Shown: positions 9,932 to 63,264 of the stretch, in pieces
How positions within the stretch are numbered: position 1 is the stretch's first letter
Layout of the letters: each line of letters opens with the position of its first letter
Origin: an uncultured Candidatus Saccharibacteria bacterium
GTDB lineage: Bacteria; Patescibacteriota; WWE3; UBA101185; UBA10185
Length of the DNA: 64,000 bases
NCBI GenBank assembly: GCA_964490125.1
Contig: CAZBAJ010000001.1
Coordinates: 152,243-216,242 of the forward strand
Reading direction: 5' to 3'
Made by a program: the position numbers and the translations under genes
The notes under the pieces: generated by a model
What the model was told of the DNA's origin: nothing
Database searches by the model: none
The model's input: the letters and a program-made list of their open reading frames with translations, nothing else

Positions 9932-10663
9932 ATGAAAAACATTTTATTGACTGGAATATCAGGTGGGATTGGTCAGGAGATTGCAAAAAATTTAGTTTCA
10001 GATGGTTATTTTGTCCACGGAATCTATAACGACCGTGAAAAAGAAGCCAAACGAATCGAGCAAGAGTTAAAAAGCGTCAAGCTTTACAAAATCGACCTAA
10101 GTAAAAGAGATCAAGTGCTTGGTTTAGTGTCAACACTTAAGGATATTAAGCTGAACGGTTTGATAAATAACGCGGGGGTATTTTACGACGATCCCTTGAG
10201 TAATCAAGACTTAAGTGTTTGGGATAAAACCTTGGAAATTAATCTTACCACTCCAATGATTTTAGTGCGAGGCTTGGCGGATAACTTTGAGAAAGGCGCA
10301 AGCATTGTAAATATCTCCTCAATTTACGGCACGCGGGTTATGGCTAACGATAGTTTATCTTATACCGCATCTAAATCGGCTTTGGCATCATTAACCAGGG
10401 CTTTGTCGGTAAGTTTTGCTGGTCGACAAATTAGAGTAAACGGGGTAGCCCCCGGTCCTGTAAATACACCGATAAATAGTGCCATGACGGAAGAAGCTAA
10501 GAAGGAAATAATTAGCCAGACGCCTTTAAGAGAATATTGCTCACCTAAGTATATTGCCGATGTTGTAAGCTTTCTGATGTCGGAAAAAGCTTACTGGATA
10601 AATGGCGAAGTTATTGTAGCTGATGGTGGACAAACAAATTTTCACAGTTTTTTTAGTGTGTGA
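9932..10663 (+). CDS. Short-chain dehydrogenase/reductase (SDR) family oxidoreductase
   Basis: TGISGGIGQEIA, NNAG and YTASKSA (YxxxK) motifs are present. Confidence 0.8.
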   Translation: MKNILLTGISGGIGQEIAKNLVSDGYFVHGIYNDREKEAKRIEQELKSVKLYKIDLSKRDQVLGLVSTLKDIKLNGLINNAGVFYDDPLSNQDLSVWDKTLEINLTTPMILVRGLADNFEKGASIVNISSIYGTRVMANDSLSYTASKSALASLTRALSVSFAGRQIRVNGVAPGPVNTPINSAMTEEAKKEIISQTPLREYCSPKYIADVVSFLMSEKAYWINGEVIVADGGQTNFHSFFSV

Positions 10664-51208: not shown

Positions 51209-53677
51209 ATGACTGCCCAAACTGCCCAAGAAGACAAATCCGTAGGTAAAGATGAAGTAGGTTTAACCGCCGCGCAAGCCCAAGAAAACATTGCAAAATA
51301 CGGCGCCAACATTTTAGAGTCACAAAAACTTTCCGCGGTAAAAATTTTAGGTCGACAATTTAAGGGCAACTACCTAGTCTACATTTTAATAATATGTACG
51401 GTTGCATCCTTTGCTTTAGGTGAGCGAGTAAGCTCCTTATACATTTTTGCCATGATTTTTGTAAGCGCTGGACTTGGTTTTTGGAACGAGTATTCTGCCC
51501 AAAAAACTGTAGAGCGACTGTTAAAACGCATCACGCCAAAAGTTACGGTTAGACGGGACGGGGTTGACCAAGAAATATTGTTGACTCAAATCGCGGTGGG
51601 CGACGCGGTGCTGTTTTCCACCGGTAGTGTAATTCCAGCGGATTTACAAATTCTCCAGGCGGAAAATTTAGAAGTTAATGAAAGTGTGTTGACTGGAGAA
51701 AGTGAGCCGGTAGTTAAAAAGCCTGGCGACGCTATGTACATGGGCACAAATGTAGAAAGTGGACACGGTTTGGGTTTGGTGACACAAGTAGGTAAACGCA
51801 CAAAATACGGAGAAATTGCCAAAAGCATTAACTTTTTAAAACCGGAGACTTCCTTCCAAATAGGTTTACATAGTTTTGGAAATATGCTGGTAAAAATAAT
51901 ATTTATTTTGGCTGGCGCAATCTTTTTAGTTAACTCCGCTTTAGGTAAGGATTTTCTTTCTAGCCTAATGTTTGCTTTAGCAATTGCGGTTGGTCTAACA
52001 CCGGAGCTTTTGCCAGTGATAGTGACTTTAAGCTTGTCGCACGGGGCAGGAAAGCTTGGCAAAAAGTATGTAGTAGTTAAACAGTTGGTTGCCGTAGAAA
52101 ATTTGGGTAATATGGACATTTTATGTTGCGACAAGACCGGAACGCTTACAGAAGGCAAAATAGAAGTAACTGATTATTTTGATGGCCAAGGTCAAAAGAG
52201 TCTAAAAGTGTTAGAAAAAGCGTTTTTAAGCGTGCCTAAAGGCGTCCAACAAAGCGCTAGTTTGGATAAAGCTATAGTTCAAATGGCGCAAAAAGCGGGA
52301 ATTCCTAAAAGCCTGGGGGTTGTATCTTATTTGGACAGTGAAGCCTTTGACTACAACAAAAAAGCCTCGTTCAACGTGGTTAAGTTTGAGAGCGTGACGC
52401 ATTTTTTGGTTAAGGGTGTGTTTGAAGATGTGGCTAGAATGTGCGACTTAAGTTTAGGTCAAGTAAATCTAAAGGATTTGCAAAAAAAGGTGGACATGTT
52501 GGGGATGCGGGGATTTAGGGTTATTGTTCTAGCTGGCAAAACACTAACGGCAAAAACATCCGGCGAATACACTTGGGATGACGCAAAAAACTTGCAGCTA
52601 CATGGCTTTTTAGTTTTTTCTGACGCGCCCAAAAAAGACGCTAAAAAAGCTCTAGACCGACTTGAGAAGCTAAATGTCGATTTAAAAGTGCTAACCGGTG
52701 ATAACGAAATTGTTGCCCTTAAAGTTTGCGCGGAGGTTGGACTTGCGGTAAAAGGTGTAATTCTAGGCGAGCGATTAGCAAAATTAACTGAAGCGGAGCT
52801 TGCAACCGCGGTACTTAACAACAATATTTTTGCCCGAGTAACGCCGGAAAACAAATTGGCAATCATTAAAGCTCTAAGAAATGCGGGTCATACTGTGGGT
52901 TTTTTGGGCGACGGTATAAACGACGCGCCCGCCCTGCATACCGCGGATGTTGGTATAAGCGTGAACACCGCATCTGATGTAGCAAAAGACTCCGCGTCTG
53001 TAGTGTTAATGCGGGGCGGGCTTGATGTGATTGCGGAAGGTGTTGTAGAAGGCAGGCGGATTTTTAACAACACCATAAAATATATTCTAATGGGAACAAG
53101 CTCTAATTTTGGTAATATGTTTTCCGCAGCTTTTGCGTCGTTTGTCTTGCCGTTTTTGCCCATGACGCCGGTTCAAATATTGCTAAACAATACTTTATAC
53201 GACTTTTCCCAGCTTACTATTCCGTCCGATAATGTAGACAAGGAATCGTTGTTAAAGCCCAGACACTGGGATATAAGCTTTATTAAAAAATACATGCTCT
53301 TTTTTGGACCTATTAGCTCGCTGTTTGATTTTATTACCTTTTTCTTTTTAATTTTGGTATTTAAGGCAACATCTGGGCAATTTCAAACAGGCTGGTTTTT
53401 AGAGTCGCTCTTAACCCAGACATTAGTAATTTTTGTCATTAGAACGGCTAAAACTCCGTTTTGGAAGTCCGCACCCGGTAAATTGTTGATAATGTCCAGT
53501 GTTGTCGTGCTTGGAGGCGCCTTGGCGATTGTCATCCTTCCGTTAAGGGCGTCGTTTGGGTTTGAATCGCTCCATTTGGGTTATGGCGCCTTCCTGCTAG
53601 TCGTCCTGCTAAGTTACATGCTGCTGGTGGACGGATTAAAGCGCCAATTTATAAAAAAGTTTAAGATTTGGAATTAG
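51209..53677 (+). CDS. P-type cation-transporting ATPase (Mg2+/Ca2+ type)
   Basis: CDKTGTLT, TGDN and GDGINDAPAL motifs and ~10 TM helices. Confidence 0.9.
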   Translation: MTAQTAQEDKSVGKDEVGLTAAQAQENIAKYGANILESQKLSAVKILGRQFKGNYLVYILIICTVASFALGERVSSLYIFAMIFVSAGLGFWNEYSAQKTVERLLKRITPKVTVRRDGVDQEILLTQIAVGDAVLFSTGSVIPADLQILQAENLEVNESVLTGESEPVVKKPGDAMYMGTNVESGHGLGLVTQVGKRTKYGEIAKSINFLKPETSFQIGLHSFGNMLVKIIFILAGAIFLVNSALGKDFLSSLMFALAIAVGLTPELLPVIVTLSLSHGAGKLGKKYVVVKQLVAVENLGNMDILCCDKTGTLTEGKIEVTDYFDGQGQKSLKVLEKAFLSVPKGVQQSASLDKAIVQMAQKAGIPKSLGVVSYLDSEAFDYNKKASFNVVKFESVTHFLVKGVFEDVARMCDLSLGQVNLKDLQKKVDMLGMRGFRVIVLAGKTLTAKTSGEYTWDDAKNLQLHGFLVFSDAPKKDAKKALDRLEKLNVDLKVLTGDNEIVALKVCAEVGLAVKGVILGERLAKLTEAELATAVLNNNIFARVTPENKLAIIKALRNAGHTVGFLGDGINDAPALHTADVGISVNTASDVAKDSASVVLMRGGLDVIAEGVVEGRRIFNNTIKYILMGTSSNFGNMFSAAFASFVLPFLPMTPVQILLNNTLYDFSQLTIPSDNVDKESLLKPRHWDISFIKKYMLFFGPISSLFDFITFFFLILVFKATSGQFQTGWFLESLLTQTLVIFVIRTAKTPFWKSAPGKLLIMSSVVVLGGALAIVILPLRASFGFESLHLGYGAFLLVVLLSYMLLVDGLKRQFIKKFKIWN

Positions 53678-53720
53678 TGTGCTAAAATCCTCCCACAATT
53701 AAATTAGAAGAAAGGTTTAT

Positions 53721-54386
53721 ATGACATTACCAAAAATTAACTTGCCCCAAAATGTAAAAAAGAATCTGCCAACACTTGTGTTTGTGCTAGTCATCCCGCT
53801 AGGGATTTTAGTGGGCTACTTTTTCTCTAATATAAAGGGATGGGTTGCCGGTGGCTATAAAGGGATTTTTATGCCTGTAAATAAGATGCTGTATGTGGCT
53901 AAGGTTGACGGAGTAGGTATTTCCAAGGGTGAGTGGGAAAAAATGCTTAAATCGCGGTACGGCAAGTCCGCAGCTAGGGATTTAATTGATATTTACATGG
54001 TCAATAACCAGCTTAAAAAGGCGGGTATTAAAGTTTCCGAGGACGAAATTAACGCGGAGATTGCGGAAATTGAAAAGCAATTAGCAGGGCAGAGTTTGGA
54101 GGAAGTTTTAGGTCAACAAGGCATGACGCTTACGGACTTTAGAAAAAATGTTTCTATGCAGGTTGGTATGAAGAAGCTGTTAAGCGACAAAGTAGTAATT
54201 GCGGACGAGGATGTGACTAAGTACATTGCGGATTACGCCAGTACGCTTACAGGCAAAACCGACGATGAGAAGTTTGCGGAAGCTAAAAAGATTTTGACGG
54301 ATCAGAAGTTGGGCGAAGAAATAAATAAGTGGTACAGCGACTTGCAGACCAAAGTGGTGGTGGAGAATTACCTAGAAGCTAAGTAA
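53721..54386 (+). CDS. SurA N-terminal domain-like membrane-anchored chaperone-like protein
   Basis: An N-terminal TM helix and a helical SurA_N-like composition. Weak. Confidence 0.45.
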   Translation: MTLPKINLPQNVKKNLPTLVFVLVIPLGILVGYFFSNIKGWVAGGYKGIFMPVNKMLYVAKVDGVGISKGEWEKMLKSRYGKSAARDLIDIYMVNNQLKKAGIKVSEDEINAEIAEIEKQLAGQSLEEVLGQQGMTLTDFRKNVSMQVGMKKLLSDKVVIADEDVTKYIADYASTLTGKTDDEKFAEAKKILTDQKLGEEINKWYSDLQTKVVVENYLEAK

Positions 54387-54435
54387 CCGGTAACTAATAA
54401 TTCTCATCTAATTGACGATTTAAAGACAAAAAAAA

Positions 54436-54462
54436 GAAGCCCTAACGGGCTTCTTTTTTTTT
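54436..54462. terminator. Bidirectional Rho-independent terminator (gaagccc-taac-gggcttc flanked by an A-run and a T9-run)
   Basis: A hairpin with flanking homopolymers, lying between convergent genes. Confidence 0.8.
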
Positions 54463-54533
54463 GAAGGCCTGACGGCATTCAGATTGATACCACTTTGGAT
54501 ATTTTAACCGATATATTTTGTAAAATCAACCAA

Positions 54534-55862
54534 TTAGAAATTGAACATTAAATAATTGGGTTTTAAAATTAGTAAAGCGCCGATCAACACCATCAATAAT
54601 CCCCCAATAAGGTTGGAATATTTGGCGTATTTTGTGGAAATTCCGGTGACTTCCAAAGTCCGCATAGAAATAAAAAAGACTATAAAGTCGTCCAACATAA
54701 AAAAGACAATGTACAAGGCTATGTAGAGGTAGTATTGGATTGCTGATAAGCCGTTTAGTGTCAAGATTTGCGTAAAGATTGCTGGAAACCCCGCGGAACA
54801 AAAGAGTTCCACCAAATTAACCGCAAAAGCCAGCCCAGCGATTCCCAAAAGGGCAGTCAGCAAACTTTTGTCGTAAGTAATTTTCTTAAGTTTATCAAAG
54901 GTTTTTTTACGGTTTTCGTCCTCTGTAACCACGCAACCCATTTTATGCTGGAGATACTTGTTTAGGCTAAAAGCACCTGCCAGAATAGCAAATCCGGCAA
55001 TAAGGAGTCGTACCCAGACAATAAAACCCACAAACAACAGTATATTTAGCCACGCGGACATAAAAAGAAAATAAACCAAACCGGAAGCCAGCAAAAAAGT
55101 TATTCCCAAGAGCCATCTGCGGTTTTTGTTTGGCAGATTTACAAGCAGGCTAATTAAAAAGAGCAAAACCCACATAGCGCAGGGGTTAAAACCATCCAGT
55201 GTACCTATAACCACGGCAATAAGCGGTAAGGAGAGCGTTGTTAGGTTAATTTTGCCGACAATTGGGAGCACGACTTCTTTTGGTAAAGAAATCGGCGCAT
55301 TTTTCCACGGATCCGGCTTTGGGTTAGCGGGTTCGGGATTGGGCTTTTGTGTAGGTATAAGATCGTTTGGATTAGATGTGACCGATGTGGGATGAGGCGC
55401 GGGACTGGGTTCTGTTTTAGGCGTTGGGGCGGGATTTATTTCTGCTATAACATCTTTACAATCGTTAATCTGACAATAATCAATGTATTCATGGATTTGG
55501 GCTCCTGTGGTGTCGGCTGTGTAATAACCGCCAATATGATTCTCTCCCACGACGGTAAACGGTACGCCTTTAATGTCAGCATTAAGCTTTTCTCCTACTT
55601 TTTTTAAGAGTTCGCGGTTTTTAGCGTTGCCCCAAACCTCAAACTTGTTAATTGCTAGGTTTGGGTAATCCTTCTCAAGTTTGTCTAGAAACTTCTCTTC
55701 CTCCGCGCAGTGTGGGCATCCGTTACCCCAAAAAAAGTACAGGTTGACTTTGTTAGAAGTGCTAGTTTCTGCCCTTACATTAACAGAAAGTACCGTAAAT
55801 ACAGTAAAAATCACTGCCATGAGCACTTTGTAGTAAGGTGGACAAAACTTTCGGAAATTCAT
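54534..55862 (-). CDS. Thioredoxin-like domain fused to a CcdA/DsbD-type transmembrane thiol-disulfide transporter
   Basis: Signal peptide, then WGNGCPHC, a Pro-rich linker and a CcdA-like TM domain (DGFNPCAMWVL). Confidence 0.8.
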   Translation of the reverse strand: MNFRKFCPPYYKVLMAVIFTVFTVLSVNVRAETSTSNKVNLYFFWGNGCPHCAEEEKFLDKLEKDYPNLAINKFEVWGNAKNRELLKKVGEKLNADIKGVPFTVVGENHIGGYYTADTTGAQIHEYIDYCQINDCKDVIAEINPAPTPKTEPSPAPHPTSVTSNPNDLIPTQKPNPEPANPKPDPWKNAPISLPKEVVLPIVGKINLTTLSLPLIAVVIGTLDGFNPCAMWVLLFLISLLVNLPNKNRRWLLGITFLLASGLVYFLFMSAWLNILLFVGFIVWVRLLIAGFAILAGAFSLNKYLQHKMGCVVTEDENRKKTFDKLKKITYDKSLLTALLGIAGLAFAVNLVELFCSAGFPAIFTQILTLNGLSAIQYYLYIALYIVFFMLDDFIVFFISMRTLEVTGISTKYAKYSNLIGGLLMVLIGALLILKPNYLMFNF

Positions 55863-55877
55863 TAAAAGATTATAACA

Positions 55878-56658
55878 TTACCCTCGCTTTTGATTGAATA
55901 AAAAATCAAGGGCTTTAGTGATTGAATTGTGATCAATGGACTTGCCTAAAGTAACCGAATCCAGTTGTTTTGGGAAATGTTCTAAACTCGTAGTAAGAAT
56001 CTGATACTTTACTTTTTCTTTGGTAAGGCAGGATTCAATATAGCTATGATTTATCCTATTATCGTTTGGGTTTAAAAGAATTAAATAAGGTACTTTATGA
56101 AACTTCGGTCGGCTGTGGTCGGTTAATATCAGCTCCAATACTGCAAAGAATGTTTTTGGAGAAATTTCTTTGAATATCGCATCCCGTGTTGTTTGAGAGT
56201 GTTTTGCGAAAAAACCAAATTTTATTACTAATTTCTCGCGCAAAACATACTTTTCTATATGAAGTAGTCGTACAATTTTACATAACCCAAGAATTCCAAA
56301 TTGCTTGAATTGATTTATGCTCAAGGATTCTTTGTTTAAATAAGGAAATATGCCGATAATTCCGGAGCATTTTTTAGCAGACTCACAATCGTTAACTACT
56401 TTAAACCCAAAGCTCGCCCCCCCCCATGTAGAAATTTTCTAGTTTAAGCTTGGTTACCACGGCATCAACATAACAACTGTAATCTTTTAGCGAAGCCGGT
56501 TCTATGGCAGGAATGTTTTTTATAAAACCCGGAAGGTCTACCGGAATTACTTGAAAAAATAAATTCAAATAACCTATAAGACCATTAAGCGCTTTAGAGT
56601 TTGTAGGAAATGAGTGAACGAATATCAGATTTGCTTTAGTCATTTTTATGTTTCTCAA
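55878..56658 (-). pseudogene. Alpha/beta hydrolase split by a frameshift in a C9/G9 homopolymer (56417-56425)
   Basis: The 85-aa ORF (56401..56658; LIFVHSFP) and the 148-aa ORF (55878..56324) are in frames that differ by one. The downstream frame is open through the tract. With 8 G the join reads YMGGASFGF, restoring a GxSxG nucleophile elbow. Confidence 0.6.
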
Positions 56659-56905
56659 TCAAAGATACGATCTCTTGTTTAGAAGGCTCGCCGGAGAGTC
56701 GTGTGATTTCTTTGTCGTCCTTGTCCAAAAAGATAAAAACCGGTAAATTTCTACCTACATTCCACTTTTTCACCTCGTCAGGTGAATCGTCGTACTCAAA
56801 ATAGCGGGTTTCCAGCCAAGGATTTTCCGCCTCAATTTCCTTCCATCGAGGTCGCATAACTAAACAACCCGGACACCATACTGCACCAAACTTTAAAACC
56901 TTCAT
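56636..56905 (-). CDS. trxA: Thioredoxin
   Basis: WCPGC active site. 89 aa. Confidence 0.85.
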   Translation of the reverse strand: MKVLKFGAVWCPGCLVMRPRWKEIEAENPWLETRYFEYDDSPDEVKKWNVGRNLPVFIFLDKDDKEITRLSGEPSKQEIVSLIEKHKND

Positions 56906-56998
56906 AAACTCCTTTCTAATTACTTTAATCTTTGTGACTACTTAAACAAATCGAATACTAGCTTTCCGATGATTATAGTAACACAAAAATTTCGTCGA

Positions 56999-57928
56999 CT
57001 AAAGCAAAGTTAGCCATGCTAAACCCAGCACGATTCTGTAAATTCCAAAAGGTAAAAAGCTGTGTTTTTGGACAAAGTTAATAAACAGTTTGACGGCAAA
57101 TAGCGCGGTGATAAAGGATCCTACAAACCCTATAATTAGTAGGACGACTTCCTGGCTGGAAAAATTAAAGTTTGACTTATAAAGATCCAGACTTGTGGCG
57201 GCAAGCATTGTGGGAATTGCTAGAAAAAAGGAAAACTTGATAGCTTCTGTTTTATTTAACCCCATTAGCAGTCCGCCAAAAATGCTTGCCGCCGATCTTG
57301 AAACTCCTGGAACTACGGCAAGACTTTGGAACACGCCGATAACCAAAAGCCTCGGTACGGATAAGTTTTTAAAAAGCTCTTTGGCTGGTGTTATTGTTGG
57401 GGGAATAAGTCTGGGATTACTATACTTTTTGGCGTGATTGCCATTGTATATATTCGGTATACCGTTTTCGTAATGCGAAGTCGTTGGTACATGTGGGTCG
57501 GACAACCCGATGTTTTGGTTGGTAGCGTTTGTTGTATATTTATCCGATCGATTGGTTTTATCCACCAACTTGTCAATAACCGTAAAAACCAAACCGCCGA
57601 GAATTAACGCTAGAGTAGTAACAAGTCCGTTGCCAATAAGTCGCTCCTTAATAAAGTCGTACAGAAAAAAGCCAATAATTGCGGACGGCAAAAAAGCCAG
57701 AATTGTTTTGTACCAGAGCTGGGTGTTGCGGGAAAGCTCTTTAAAATACAGCGCGACAACGGCAAGGATTGCTCCAAGCTGGATAATGACCTCAAAGCTT
57801 TTAACAAAATCGGTTTGGGAAACGCCTAATATTTGTGAAGTTAAGATTAGGTGCGCGGTGGAGGAAATCGGCAGGAATTCGGTAATTCCCTCGACCACAG
57901 AAAGTACAATAGATTCAATGAAGTTCAT
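56999..57928 (-). CDS. uppP: Undecaprenyl-diphosphatase UppP/BacA with a ~65-aa hydrophilic insertion
   Basis: VEGITEFLPISSTAHLIL and the C-terminal SRSAASI box are present. An insertion NRSDKYTTNATNQNIG...HAKKYSNPRL is present. Confidence 0.85.
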   Translation of the reverse strand: MNFIESIVLSVVEGITEFLPISSTAHLILTSQILGVSQTDFVKSFEVIIQLGAILAVVALYFKELSRNTQLWYKTILAFLPSAIIGFFLYDFIKERLIGNGLVTTLALILGGLVFTVIDKLVDKTNRSDKYTTNATNQNIGLSDPHVPTTSHYENGIPNIYNGNHAKKYSNPRLIPPTITPAKELFKNLSVPRLLVIGVFQSLAVVPGVSRSAASIFGGLLMGLNKTEAIKFSFFLAIPTMLAATSLDLYKSNFNFSSQEVVLLIIGFVGSFITALFAVKLFINFVQKHSFLPFGIYRIVLGLAWLTLL

Positions 57929-57931
57929 AGT

Positions 57932-58360
57932 TTAAAATAAAAAATCTAGATACTTGTCAACCATATTTATATTGATTTCTTTAAACCTATCTATAAATCC
58001 GTGTTGACCTAGTAATGGTGAAGACTGTTTTTCCACAAAGAAAACAACCGTATCATTGATTACAATGTCGCCAAAAAACAAGTCACACCCATGACCCCAG
58101 GCATGGGCTTCGGTTCCTCCAGCACCGGTTATTGGCAGATACATGCCTTTTTTTATTTTATCTATAGAAAACCCCAAAAATACTTGGGCATACTCAAAGG
58201 GAAAGACATTTATAGCTGAACCTGTGTCAAAATAGCAACTTATCGCACGACCCATCATGTGATTGCACAGCAAGCCGACTTTTATCCACGGAGCGTAGTG
58301 AATAATTTGACCTTCCTGATTGGGTAGTAGGAATGTTGTTTCGGTTAAACCTACCTTCAT
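57932..58360 (-). CDS. Retropepsin-like (clan AA) aspartic protease
   Basis: The DTGS catalytic motif (YFDTGSAINVFP) is present. ~140 aa, single domain. Confidence 0.7.
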   Translation of the reverse strand: MKVGLTETTFLLPNQEGQIIHYAPWIKVGLLCNHMMGRAISCYFDTGSAINVFPFEYAQVFLGFSIDKIKKGMYLPITGAGGTEAHAWGHGCDLFFGDIVINDTVVFFVEKQSSPLLGQHGFIDRFKEININMVDKYLDFLF

Positions 58361-58563
58361 AGAATTATAGATGGAACATAAACGGAATTTAGTGGCATGA
58401 CCTTCTCCACAGTGTAGTCGTTATTTAGTGTCCGCATTTTTTCTGCTAGTACTGCTAAACTCTTGTCTGCTTCAAGCACAGCCCCTGTAACAGGATCCCT
58501 AGCCAGCCACATATTTTGATATTTAAGCTTAAAGTCTATTAACGCCTTGTTTTTTGTTTTCAT
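58357..58563 (-). CDS. Small protein (68 aa), DUF5678-like, overlapping the protease gene start
   Basis: MWLARDPVTGAVLEADKSLAVLAEKM resembles the WVAI...G.V pattern I recall for DUF5678. A 4-nt overlap with the downstream protease gene. Confidence 0.35.
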   Translation of the reverse strand: MKTKNKALIDFKLKYQNMWLARDPVTGAVLEADKSLAVLAEKMRTLNNDYTVEKVMPLNSVYVPSIIL

Positions 58564-58567
58564 AAAG

Positions 58568-58822
58568 CTATTCTACCACACTCGCATCGTTATAAACTTC
58601 ATCCGATTGACTTGACTGCAAAGGCTCTTCCTGCGGAGTTGGTGTAGGTAATACATTTTCCACGACAGTTTGCTTTTTTACCGGTCTAAGTCTATTTAAA
58701 ATTCCACTGTTGTAAACAAAAACCAAGACATAGACCAAAACAACTAAAAATGCTCCTCTAAATATTAAGTCCTTAAGATACTGGTCGTCTTGCCTTTTTT
58801 CCATGTAAAAATTAAACCACAA
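58568..58822 (-). CDS. Small single-TM membrane protein; hypothetical
   Basis: One hydrophobic helix (GAFLVVLVYVLVFVY). Confidence 0.35.
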   Translation of the reverse strand: MWFNFYMEKRQDDQYLKDLIFRGAFLVVLVYVLVFVYNSGILNRLRPVKKQTVVENVLPTPTPQEEPLQSSQSDEVYNDASVVE

Positions 58823-58852
58823 AAACCCACTTTTAGGTAGTATACTTGGCGC

Positions 58853-61107: not shown

Positions 61108-61365
61108 ATGATTCAGCAAGTCCGCATGCCGGTGTCGGTTAATTTAATTTACGACCATAAGAAAAACCGCGTCTCACCCGTCGCACTAAAATGGGATGGC
61201 GAGGTTAAAAAAGTTAAAACTGTGGATTTGCATCATTCCTACAGAACTGGTCGCACCCTATACCATGTGTTTTCTGTGTCAACCGAAGGCGCGTTTTTTA
61301 AGCTGGTGCTAAATACCGACAATCTTTTTTGGGAAGTTGAGGAGGTTTCGTGCGATGGAGTTTAA
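61108..61365 (+). CDS. Small hypothetical protein (85 aa) overlapping the dinB start by 29 nt
   Basis: The ORF is translationally coupled to dinB. No known motif. Confidence 0.4.
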   Translation: MIQQVRMPVSVNLIYDHKKNRVSPVALKWDGEVKKVKTVDLHHSYRTGRTLYHVFSVSTEGAFFKLVLNTDNLFWEVEEVSCDGV

Positions 61366-62578
61366 CCCAAAACCTTCCACCACTATGCATATTGATCTAA
61401 ATTCCTGCTTTGCCACTATTGAACAGCAAGCTAACCGGAATTTGCGTGGCAGACCGATTGCGGTGGCTTCCTACAACAGTCCCGGTGGGTGTATTTTGGC
61501 ACCTTCTGTTGAGGCCAAAAAGTTGGGTATTAAAACCGGTATGCGGGTTAAGGACGGAAAGCTGTTGTGTCCTGGGCTTATTGTTATGGAGCCGGATCCG
61601 CCCAAGTATCGATTTGTCCATCTAAAACTTAAAGAATTGGTGGGCAGGTATACGCCAAAAGCGGTGCCTAAGTCTATTGACGAGTTTGTGTTGGACTTGG
61701 AAGGCTGTCCCGCGTTTAAGATGGGCATGCGGGAAGTTGCCCAAAAAATTAAAGTTGACATTAAACAGGAAGTTGGCGACTTTATTACGGTTTCCATAGG
61801 CATTGCGCCAAACAGGTTTTTGGCAAAGTTGGCATCCGGTTTGCATAAGCCGGACGGATTGGACGAAATTAACAAAGCTAATTTTTTAGAAATTTATGGG
61901 CGACTTTGTCTGCAGGACTTGTGCGGTATTGCCCTAAATAATGCAGTGCGACTTGGAAACACGGGAATTTACACCGTTTTGGATTTTTACCGCGCGGATG
62001 TGGCGGTTTTAAAACAGGCTTTTCATTCCATTGGCGGTTACTACTGGTATTTGCGACTCCGGGGCTGGGAAATTGATGATGTAGAGTTTAGTCGTAAAAG
62101 TTTTGGTAATTCTTATGCCTTGCCCAAGCCGTTAGCTAGTCCGGAGGAGCTTTCACCCATACTTTCTAAATTGGTAGAAAAAATGTCTTTTAGACTGCGG
62201 ACTGCGGGATTTAAAGCCAGAGGCGTTGGTTTGTTTATAGATTATCGTGGGGGAAATTTTTGGCACAAAACCAGGTTAGCCGGGGAGTTTTTGTATGAGT
62301 CGGGCGACTTCTTTAGGTCCGCATATAAACTTTTGTGTCAGTCGCCTTATAAAGAACCGGTTGCGGTTTTGGCGGTATGTTGTTTTGACTTGGAAAAAGC
62401 CACGATTATTCAGCAGGACATGTTTGGCGCGCAGGAGAAAAAGTTTAATTTGGCAAATTCTGTGGATGTCATAAATTCCAAGTGGGGCAGTTTTGTTTTA
62501 GGCCCGGCAAGCCTGTTGCTGTCCAAGGAAAATGTTAGAGACCGTATTGCCTTTGGCGGGGTTAGGGATTTGTTATAA
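61337..62578 (+). CDS. dinB: Y-family DNA polymerase IV (DinB)
   Basis: HIDLNSCFATIEQ, SIDEFVLDL (catalytic D,E), ITVSIGIAPNRFLAKLAS. Confidence 0.85.
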   Translation: MRRFRAMEFNPKPSTTMHIDLNSCFATIEQQANRNLRGRPIAVASYNSPGGCILAPSVEAKKLGIKTGMRVKDGKLLCPGLIVMEPDPPKYRFVHLKLKELVGRYTPKAVPKSIDEFVLDLEGCPAFKMGMREVAQKIKVDIKQEVGDFITVSIGIAPNRFLAKLASGLHKPDGLDEINKANFLEIYGRLCLQDLCGIALNNAVRLGNTGIYTVLDFYRADVAVLKQAFHSIGGYYWYLRLRGWEIDDVEFSRKSFGNSYALPKPLASPEELSPILSKLVEKMSFRLRTAGFKARGVGLFIDYRGGNFWHKTRLAGEFLYESGDFFRSAYKLLCQSPYKEPVAVLAVCCFDLEKATIIQQDMFGAQEKKFNLANSVDVINSKWGSFVLGPASLLLSKENVRDRIAFGGVRDLL

Positions 62579-62585
62579 TACCGAC

Positions 62586-63264
62586 ATGGGGGATGAAGCA
62601 AAAGTAAAAAATAATGAGGGCGAGCTTCTGGCTATCGAAAGGTACAGACAAATAGAGAGGGGTTTGGTTCACGCCCCGATGTTGAAAAAAGAATGGTCTG
62701 AAGAAGATATGAGCGCAGTTTTGTCTACGGTTGGAGACCCAGAAGTTGTTAGAGCAGGTTTGGAGCATGTTCGTGGGCGGGAACTTTGCCATGTATTGAG
62801 ATTGCTGCGGGGGGGGGGAGATAGAAAGAGAGTTTGCTATTGCGTATTTGAGATATAGTCCAGAAGCTATTTTGCCTGATTCTAATACTGCAACAAGCGA
62901 ACGCAGAGATGTAAGATTGGTGGTGGGAAGCGAGGGAACGGACACTACCGCTTTCTGGACATTCGCACCTTATTTATTTGACGAGTTTAAACAACAAGAG
63001 ATCGACGAAATTATATGTATGAGACTGTTGTACAGATGGGTTGCGGATGGAAGATCTGTTTCACGCGCAAGTTCCCAATACGATCAAGACAGCCATCGCT
63101 ACATACACCTTAAGGGCTTAGAATGGCTAAACAGGTTTGGTCTTAATAGTAACATTTACGCGTTGGATCCATACGACCCGGAACATGTTTCACACGAGTT
63201 TACTAGAGAAGAGGCTACGCGCATTGCTCCTATAATTATAACGGAGTTTGGGGATAAAATTTAG
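62586..63264 (+). pseudogene. Hypothetical protein gene split by a frameshift in a G10 homopolymer (62809-62818); moderately GC-richer than its surroundings
   Basis: ORF 62532..62858 (frame 0) and ORF 62848..63264 (frame 1). Frame 1 is open from 62800 through the G tract. A +/-1 change in the tract fuses them (...LRLLRGGG-EIEREFAIAYLRYSPEA...). Confidence 0.45.

Follow-up and report, generated by a model that had tools for sequence, protein, structure and literature searches.

A candidate slippage-prone poly-G tract at the nucleophile elbow of an accessory alpha/beta hydrolase gene in a WWE3-like CPR bacterium

On/off switching at homopolymers is textbook biology in host-adapted pathogens. 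What is known of the CPR/Patescibacteria comes almost entirely from metagenomes, and their within-population variation is poorly understood. In a 64-kb stretch of DNA from a WWE3-like member of this group (hereafter, the window, i.e., the whole stretch that was analyzed), a run of nine G residues splits the gene of a predicted alpha/beta hydrolase directly at its nucleophile elbow. This raises the question of whether the run is a slippage-prone switch assembled in its OFF state, a lesion in a gene that is being lost, a site of programmed recoding, or an error of the assembly.

The split hydrolase gene, its product, and its neighbors

The locus contains the following features, all of them on the minus strand:
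54534–55862, minus strand: gene of a 442-aa protein, starting 15 nt past the hydrolase stop
55878–56324, minus strand: 148-aa ORF, the frame of which continues open back through tract 1
55878–56416, minus strand: rest of the hydrolase frame below tract 1, from ASFGF to the stop, fully open, with Ser77, the cap helices, Asp194, and His222
56401–56643, minus strand: N-terminal hydrolase fragment present in the assembly, 80 aa if translated from the ATG at 56643
56417–56425, minus strand: poly-G tract 1, G9 on the coding strand and C9 on the plus strand, spanning the Met-Gly-Gly-Ala codons
56636–56905, minus strand: thioredoxin gene, 89 aa, directly upstream of the hydrolase gene

The plus strand at 56417–56425 is exactly CCCCCCCCC. 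At this length the tract is out of frame, and the N-terminal fragment meets a stop six codons past it, so that its tail reads FYMGGGELWV and the catalytic serine is absent. If the alternative TTG start at 56658 is used, the fragment becomes an 85-aa ORF (56401–56658, minus strand). The frame downstream is open across the tract, for 179 codons below it and six codons above. In frame, the codons would be ATG GGG GGG GCG, i.e., G8: deletion of a single G gives one frame of 254 codons with the junction FYMGGASFGF, and addition of two (G11) gives one frame of 255 codons with the junction MGGGASFGF. The G7, G9, and G10 alleles yielded products of only 80–82 aa in the frame test. These results agree in every point with the preliminary description of this DNA, which had noted a C9 run, an 85-aa ORF ending just past it, a downstream frame open through it, and fusion of the two ORFs at 8 or 11 residues. 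The 80-aa product is identical to P0147, a record from the source NCBI contig.

The tract is unusual for this genome, given the run lengths expected and the rare use of GGG-GGG. At a GC content of 42.1%, the window has no G/C run longer than 6 other than the C9 run at 56417–56425 and a G10 run at 62809–62818. For runs of 9 or more, a first-order Markov model predicts 0.08 in C and 0.29 in G; the earlier remark on a 9-nt G/C homopolymer in a genome of about 40% GC is thus accurate. GGG is the rarest glycine codon in the window (14% of Gly codons), and the pair GGG-GGG encodes just one of the 83 Gly-Gly dipeptides in its long ORFs. The tract lies approximately 30% into the hydrolase gene and overlaps the nucleophile elbow. 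Its placement within the catalytic motif is probably incidental, since a Gly-Gly pair between ATG and GCN can encode eight G without any change of the protein; with ATG before and GCN after the two glycines, this is the longest G run that the peptide can encode.

The fused protein is predicted to be a serine alpha/beta hydrolase, i.e., a member of the superfamily without an assignable subfamily or substrate. Its AF2 model (pLDDT 88, pTM 0.87) has a strand at residues 71–76, Ser77, and a helix at residues 78–84, which together form the nucleophile elbow. A Foldseek search against the PDB returned 880 matches at E ≤ 1e-3; the top ones are all alpha/beta hydrolases, and the best are capped members of this fold (E about 1e-9, TM 0.6–0.69, 12–17% identity). 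In a collection of 5.8 billion proteins, 15 homologues of 251–295 aa span 96–99% of the fused hydrolase at 30–38% identity, and an exhaustive search matched 180 cluster representatives at E ≤ 1e-3. The family is small and belongs chiefly to CPR lineages (Woesebacteria, Paceibacterota, Saccharibacteria, Moraniibacteriota). Its alignment shows the motifs HSFPTNS, DLPGF, GGxSFGF, NxxD, and EHFPK, and Ser77, Asp194, and His222 are conserved in the window gene. Of these, D194 (in NPND) and H222 (in EHFPK) are invariant across 16 sequences and follow the nucleophile in the canonical order, and G75, S77, and G79 are nearly invariant within the family. The fused sequence reads G75-A-S77-F-G79, a GxSxG motif which the assembled G9 destroys. 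Thus, fold model, homologues, and the Ser-Asp-His residues concur with the earlier reading of the split gene as a serine alpha/beta hydrolase, with the GxSxG elbow under the tract lying between a strand and a helix.

More specific assignments fail. The window protein scores below every curated threshold for the named families considered (Pfam Abhydrolase_1; NCBIfam BioH, MenH, and PhaZ), with 19.6 bits against a cut-off of 25.8 for PF00561 (Abhydrolase_1) and 28.5 bits against a cut-off of 300 for the best NCBIfam match; some of its homologues have a precomputed PF00561 match. No specific function emerged from searches of Pfam, NCBIfam, PADLOC, and PHROGs, and the Foldseek and PDB profile searches for function returned generic alpha/beta hydrolases only. 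The fold, the elbow between strand and helix, and the Ser-Asp-His order are shared with MenH (2xmz), BioH (4nmw, 1m33), PhaZ (8ynv), and KAI2/D14, whereas the window protein is just 12–17% identical to these enzymes and has HSFPTNS, DLPGF, and EHFPK motifs of its own.

The stop of the thioredoxin gene overlaps the start of the hydrolase gene (ATGACTAA), an overlap that suggests one operon with translational coupling, and the same thioredoxin-hydrolase arrangement is found in a related lineage (L001, see below). The 442-aa protein encoded downstream combines an N-terminal thioredoxin/glutaredoxin-like domain, carrying CPHC, with a membrane domain. In two syntenic relatives (L116 and L119) the hydrolase gene is missing, and the thioredoxin gene and a 43x-aa gene for a membrane protein of thioredoxin fold are 6–8 bp apart (junctions at L116 6816–6825 and L119 4266–4273, corresponding to 55878–56658 in the window). 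The genes flanking the junction in L119 are 82–93% identical to those of L001, which has the hydrolase. Because it is absent from these syntenic relatives, the hydrolase gene can be regarded, on the sequence comparison, as an accessory insertion into a conserved operon.

The 442-aa gene and a convergent SurA_N_3-like gene are separated by a textbook bidirectional intrinsic terminator at 54428–54462 (A8 - GAAGCCC TAAC GGGCTTC - T9), which explains the only T9 run of the window and one of its A8 runs. This A8...T9 pair was considered as a third slippery site and rejected as an ordinary terminator hairpin. An Rfam scan of the window found five tRNAs only, and nothing near tract 1. GatA of the window is most similar to sequences labelled 'Patescibacteria group' (78%) and 'candidate division WWE3' (68%), which places the organism in the CPR.

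Tract 1 and the hydrolase gene in relatives

Approximately 100 orthologous loci were taken from metagenomes and GTDB genomes. They were found with a trimmed family alignment (A2); the single fused protein as a query had no match in genome contigs. These distant orthologues, about 100 in number, are uninterrupted genes with mixed glycine codons and G runs of 2–6 at the elbow, and the exceptions among the loci all have a G tract of at least 8 there. An intact gene without a tract appears, from these sequences, to be the family norm.

A near-identical strain is represented by a Logan assembly (L074, from SRR8925812), which is 99.6% identical to positions 53635–58840 of the window (5.2 kb). Its single indel relative to the window falls in tract 1, which is G8 and belongs to an intact gene of 254 aa. 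The 19 substitutions in this segment mark it as a different strain and not as a re-assembly of the same genome. In the collections searched, the window's species is represented at tract 1 by these two assemblies only. The products that G7, G10, and G11 alleles of this species would encode (in the L19 and R19 backgrounds) had no exact match on record, and exact look-ups of products in one index gave no match for the 148-aa and 80-aa ORFs, three DinB start variants, and P0019; the same kind of look-up with the 442-aa neighbor retrieved the L074 contig only.

The nearest other lineage is formed by two ENA assemblies (L001 and L002), the hydrolase of which is 57% identical to that of the window at the amino acid level. 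Both are low-coverage assemblies, probably from related or identical samples. They have G10 at the same codons (TAT ATG G10 CAAGC...), so that the gene is split at the same place, into ORFs of 83 and 141 aa. The preliminary description had held that the variable-tract reading would suffer if orthologues also carried two separate ORFs. One orthologue does carry two, as that objection anticipated, but with a different tract length, which argues for variability and against a stable split gene. A functional split enzyme was rejected, as neither fragment contains Ser77.

We compared the window hydrolase with that of L001, both tracts being set in frame. Over the whole gene, pN is 0.29 and pS is 0.79, i.e., synonymous sites are saturated; the half below the tract has a pN of 0.33 and a pS of 0.80. 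As pN is far below pS at saturated synonymous divergence, the downstream frame is under purifying selection and has been translated under constraint ever since the two lineages separated. Neither of the two OFF alleles has a further stop or frameshift within the 254 codons, and hence the frameshifts are recent or transient. An ancient pseudogene was rejected, given that there are no other lesions and that pN is so far below pS.

A more recent loss deserves separate consideration. Here, the G run would be a hot spot of mutation and the frameshift a fixed loss in a dispensable gene that is heading to deletion. The gene is indeed missing from two close syntenic relatives, two of the three tract-bearing alleles are OFF, and other decay is seen in the family: a homologue frameshifted mid-gene at an A-rich run (L112 5752–6430, Parcubacteria group bacterium SW_6_46_9), one truncated right after the elbow glycine (L071 743–1082), and one that seems to have lost, by internal deletion, the segment between the elbow and the NxxD motif (P0271). 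However, both OFF alleles keep the catalytic triad and the family-invariant residues as well as the reading frame, the constraint on the downstream half is that of a translated gene, and the tract itself was retained across the divergence of the window and L001 although a single synonymous change would remove it; retention of GGG-GGG by chance has a probability of about 2% under the codon usage of the window. We consider pseudogenization improbable.

Recoding, by which the G9 allele would be expressed through transcriptional slippage or +1 ribosomal slippage of tRNA-Gly to give some constitutive protein, seems to us very improbable. The position of the out-of-frame stop, only six codons downstream of the tract, would suit it; a tRNA-Gly that shifts along a pure G run finds a perfect pairing in every frame, and long homopolymers make RNA polymerases slip. 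But programmed sites keep their length, whereas tract 1 varies (8, 9, and 10) and has the in-frame length in the near-identical L074; the approximately 100 orthologues do without recoding; and transcriptional-slippage sites are known mostly as A or T runs.

Several other observations were made on the family. In a MAG labelled Bacteroidota (L113, JBCCFU010000001.1), an orthologue 30% identical to the window hydrolase carries TTG GGG GGG GTA at exactly this elbow (10219–10226); this G8 is in frame and may be an independent origin of the tract. The N-terminal fragment of a 39%-identical homologue (P0285, 81 aa, from a Logan contig of 2125 bp) ends in YWVGGCPLDL, a tail that corresponds, in the product sequence, to VGG|VSFGF read after a deletion of one nucleotide at the GG/V junction; in this lineage, too, the gene was probably broken at the site of tract 1. 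A G10 run lies in the intergenic region just downstream of a hydrolase homologue in L042 (3782–3791, Ga0182027_10012479), and five CPR loci (L079, L081, L085, L086, L095) have other G/C runs of 8–10, some lying close to the 5' end of an ORF. In a Saccharibacteria MAG (L111 3282–4207, CAYSSZ010000006.1), the homologue is broken by a scaffold gap of 100 N with duplicated flanks; a biological interruption was rejected here in favor of an assembly artefact.

A second tract beside dinB, and the possibility of an assembly error

The other long G run of the window lies in an unrelated gene:
61337–62578: DinB/Pol IV gene, upstream of the tract 2 gene
62587–63264, plus strand: 225-codon gene split by tract 2, directly downstream of the DinB/Pol IV gene
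62809–62818, plus strand: poly-G tract 2, G10 as assembled and out of frame; G9 is in frame

At G9, the codons would be CGG GGG GGG GAG, i.e., Arg-Gly-Gly-Glu. The encoded protein has full-length homologues at 70–76% identity and no match in Pfam, NCBIfam, PHROGs, or PADLOC. The alleles found at this site are as follows:
G10, split: the window
G9, intact: L117 and P0020, the latter an intact 238-aa product from a Logan assembly of the same species as the window
G8, split: L119 and L120
G7, split: L121–L124, from four JGI samples and mutually differing strains
no tract (CAG GGA GGG AAG), intact: L116

Every OFF allele of tract 2 becomes fully open once reset to G9. At this tract at least, the hypervariability of length among strains is real, judging from differences of two bases and from the occurrence of G7 in four samples, neither of which is expected from random error.

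These data bear on the explanation that the window is in error, i.e., that the organism really has G8 at 56417–56425 and G9 at 62809–62818, with both genes intact and the extra G an overcall of the consensus. Long G runs are a recognized weak spot of sequencing chemistries. Both window tracts are exactly one base longer than their in-frame lengths, as a systematic overcall of G homopolymers would give, and the Logan assemblies of the same species are in frame at both sites (the 254-aa hydrolase of L074 and the 238-aa P0020). On the other hand, three long ORFs of the window contain A8 and T8 runs that are in frame, which speaks against a general homopolymer problem, and L074, with its 19 substitutions, is a separate strain. 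Lengths also vary elsewhere, at tract 2 with G7 in four samples, G9 in a fifth, and G8 in L119 and L120, and at tract 1 with the G10 of L001 and L002, and such reproducible lengths, like the two-base differences, are not what random error produces. The homopolymer-error alternative named in the preliminary description therefore keeps its footing in the shared excess of one base. All in all we regard an overcall as rather unlikely, though it has to be taken more seriously than either gene loss or recoding. The tract may be truly hypermutable and the G9 of this one assembly nonetheless a wrong call, as the two do not exclude each other. Should the frameshifts be errors of assembly, all that would be left is an annotation fix.

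A putative switch and its counterparts in other bacteria

The explanation that we favor, and consider moderately probable, is that tract 1 is a genuine slippage-prone poly-G that toggles the hydrolase ON and OFF, the window being an OFF allele. The tract would be a hypermutable homopolymer, i.e., a simple sequence repeat, lodged in the codons for Met-Gly-Gly-Ala that directly precede the catalytic serine in an accessory hydrolase gene; this gene belongs to a thioredoxin/membrane thiol-redox operon of a WWE3-like CPR bacterium. During replication, slipped-strand mispairing would add or remove G residues. With 8 or 11 G, the 254-aa enzyme would be made (ON); with 9 or 10, translation would stop a few codons past the tract, before the catalytic serine (OFF). 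Switching would presumably be frequent and reversible within the population, which amounts to true phase variation, and it may be adaptive. The premature termination, about 540 nt upstream, could in addition lower the expression of the 442-aa gene via polarity.

Contingency loci are recognized by a slip-prone homopolymer (at least 7–8 G/C, in the ORF or the promoter) that is unusual for its genome, by a shift between intact and truncated frames upon gain or loss of repeat units, by the coexistence of ON and OFF lengths among close relatives, by OFF alleles that are otherwise intact, and, beyond these, by frequent and reversible changes of length in a clonal population and by weak mismatch repair or another cause of high slippage rates. 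The first two features are seen at tract 1; the third is seen in the lengths G8, G9, and G10 at tract 1 and G7–G10 at tract 2; and the fourth is seen at both tracts. Of the slipped-strand phase variation proposed in the preliminary description, the part concerning length differences stands (an intact G8 strain, a G10 sister lineage, and G7–G10 at tract 2), while the part concerning phase variation proper retains the conditional form given above. Neither mutS nor mutL was found among the ten window ORFs that were scanned against Pfam.

A wider generalization, that CPR/Patescibacteria such as this WWE3-like lineage possess a few poly-G contingency loci which stochastically switch accessory genes, here the hydrolase and a conserved protein that would be co-transcribed with the error-prone polymerase DinB, is more tentative, and we put it forward as a possibility that falls somewhat short of probable. 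If true, it would be the first case of phase variation by simple sequence repeats in the ultra-small, probably episymbiotic CPR/Patescibacteria, and mutagenesis might in principle be modulated by the switch next to DinB. Provided that the tracts truly switch, heterogeneity within populations of this group would have a simple marker that can be scored by counting reads, and two uncharacterized accessory genes would be flagged as conditionally advantageous. More generally, split genes of this kind in metagenome-assembled genomes should be neither silently repaired nor called pseudogenes without checking the reads.

The literature searched on phase variation in CPR, Patescibacteria, and Saccharibacteria contained no link to homopolymer tracts. 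A paper on 'hypervariation' in Gracilibacteria was considered as a precedent and rejected, as it concerns in-frame 9-mer repeats and not homopolymers. Thus, the mechanism is known, and its occurrence in CPR/Patescibacteria may be new. Slipped-strand mispairing at homopolymers is established in Campylobacter, Helicobacter, Neisseria, Bordetella, and M. tuberculosis (PMC8355987, PMC2823697, PMC3786947, PMC1891110, PMC10334774, 10.1101/717272, PMC2831843).

Campylobacter jejuni and Helicobacter provide a close parallel in their poly-G/C contingency loci, e.g., Cj1295 (PMC8355987, PMC3068675, PMC2823697). Shared with the window are the low GC content, rare intragenic G/C runs of 8–10, the switch of frame by one base, differences in length between strains, and the accessory nature of the genes. 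In contrast, these organisms are host-associated pathogens with approximately 20–30 tracts per genome and with switching measured in culture and in vivo, whereas the window comes from an uncultured environmental CPR bacterium and has two tracts in 64 kb. Furthermore, the window genes encode a cytoplasmic-looking hydrolase and a DinB-linked protein, and not surface structures.

In Neisseria meningitidis and N. gonorrhoeae, the genes hmbR, hpuA, and pgtA (PMC3786947, PMC2193922, PMC5084427) likewise have an intragenic poly-G, with ON and OFF isolates and the rest of the gene intact. Their tracts are usually situated near the 5' end of receptor or glycosyltransferase genes, whereas tract 1 of the window lies about 30% into its gene, on the nucleophile elbow. 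Finally, glpK with its C7 run and other homopolymer variants of Mycobacterium tuberculosis (10.1101/717272; PMC10334774) share with tract 1 the frameshifts at a short G/C homopolymer and, in glpK, a metabolic enzyme as the affected product. The glpK frameshifts are reversible and, like the window tract, were recognized by comparing genomes (many of them, in the case of glpK). M. tuberculosis differs in that its genome is GC-rich, so that such runs are common by chance, and in that the variants have a drug-tolerance phenotype; in the window, with its 42% GC, the run clearly stands out.
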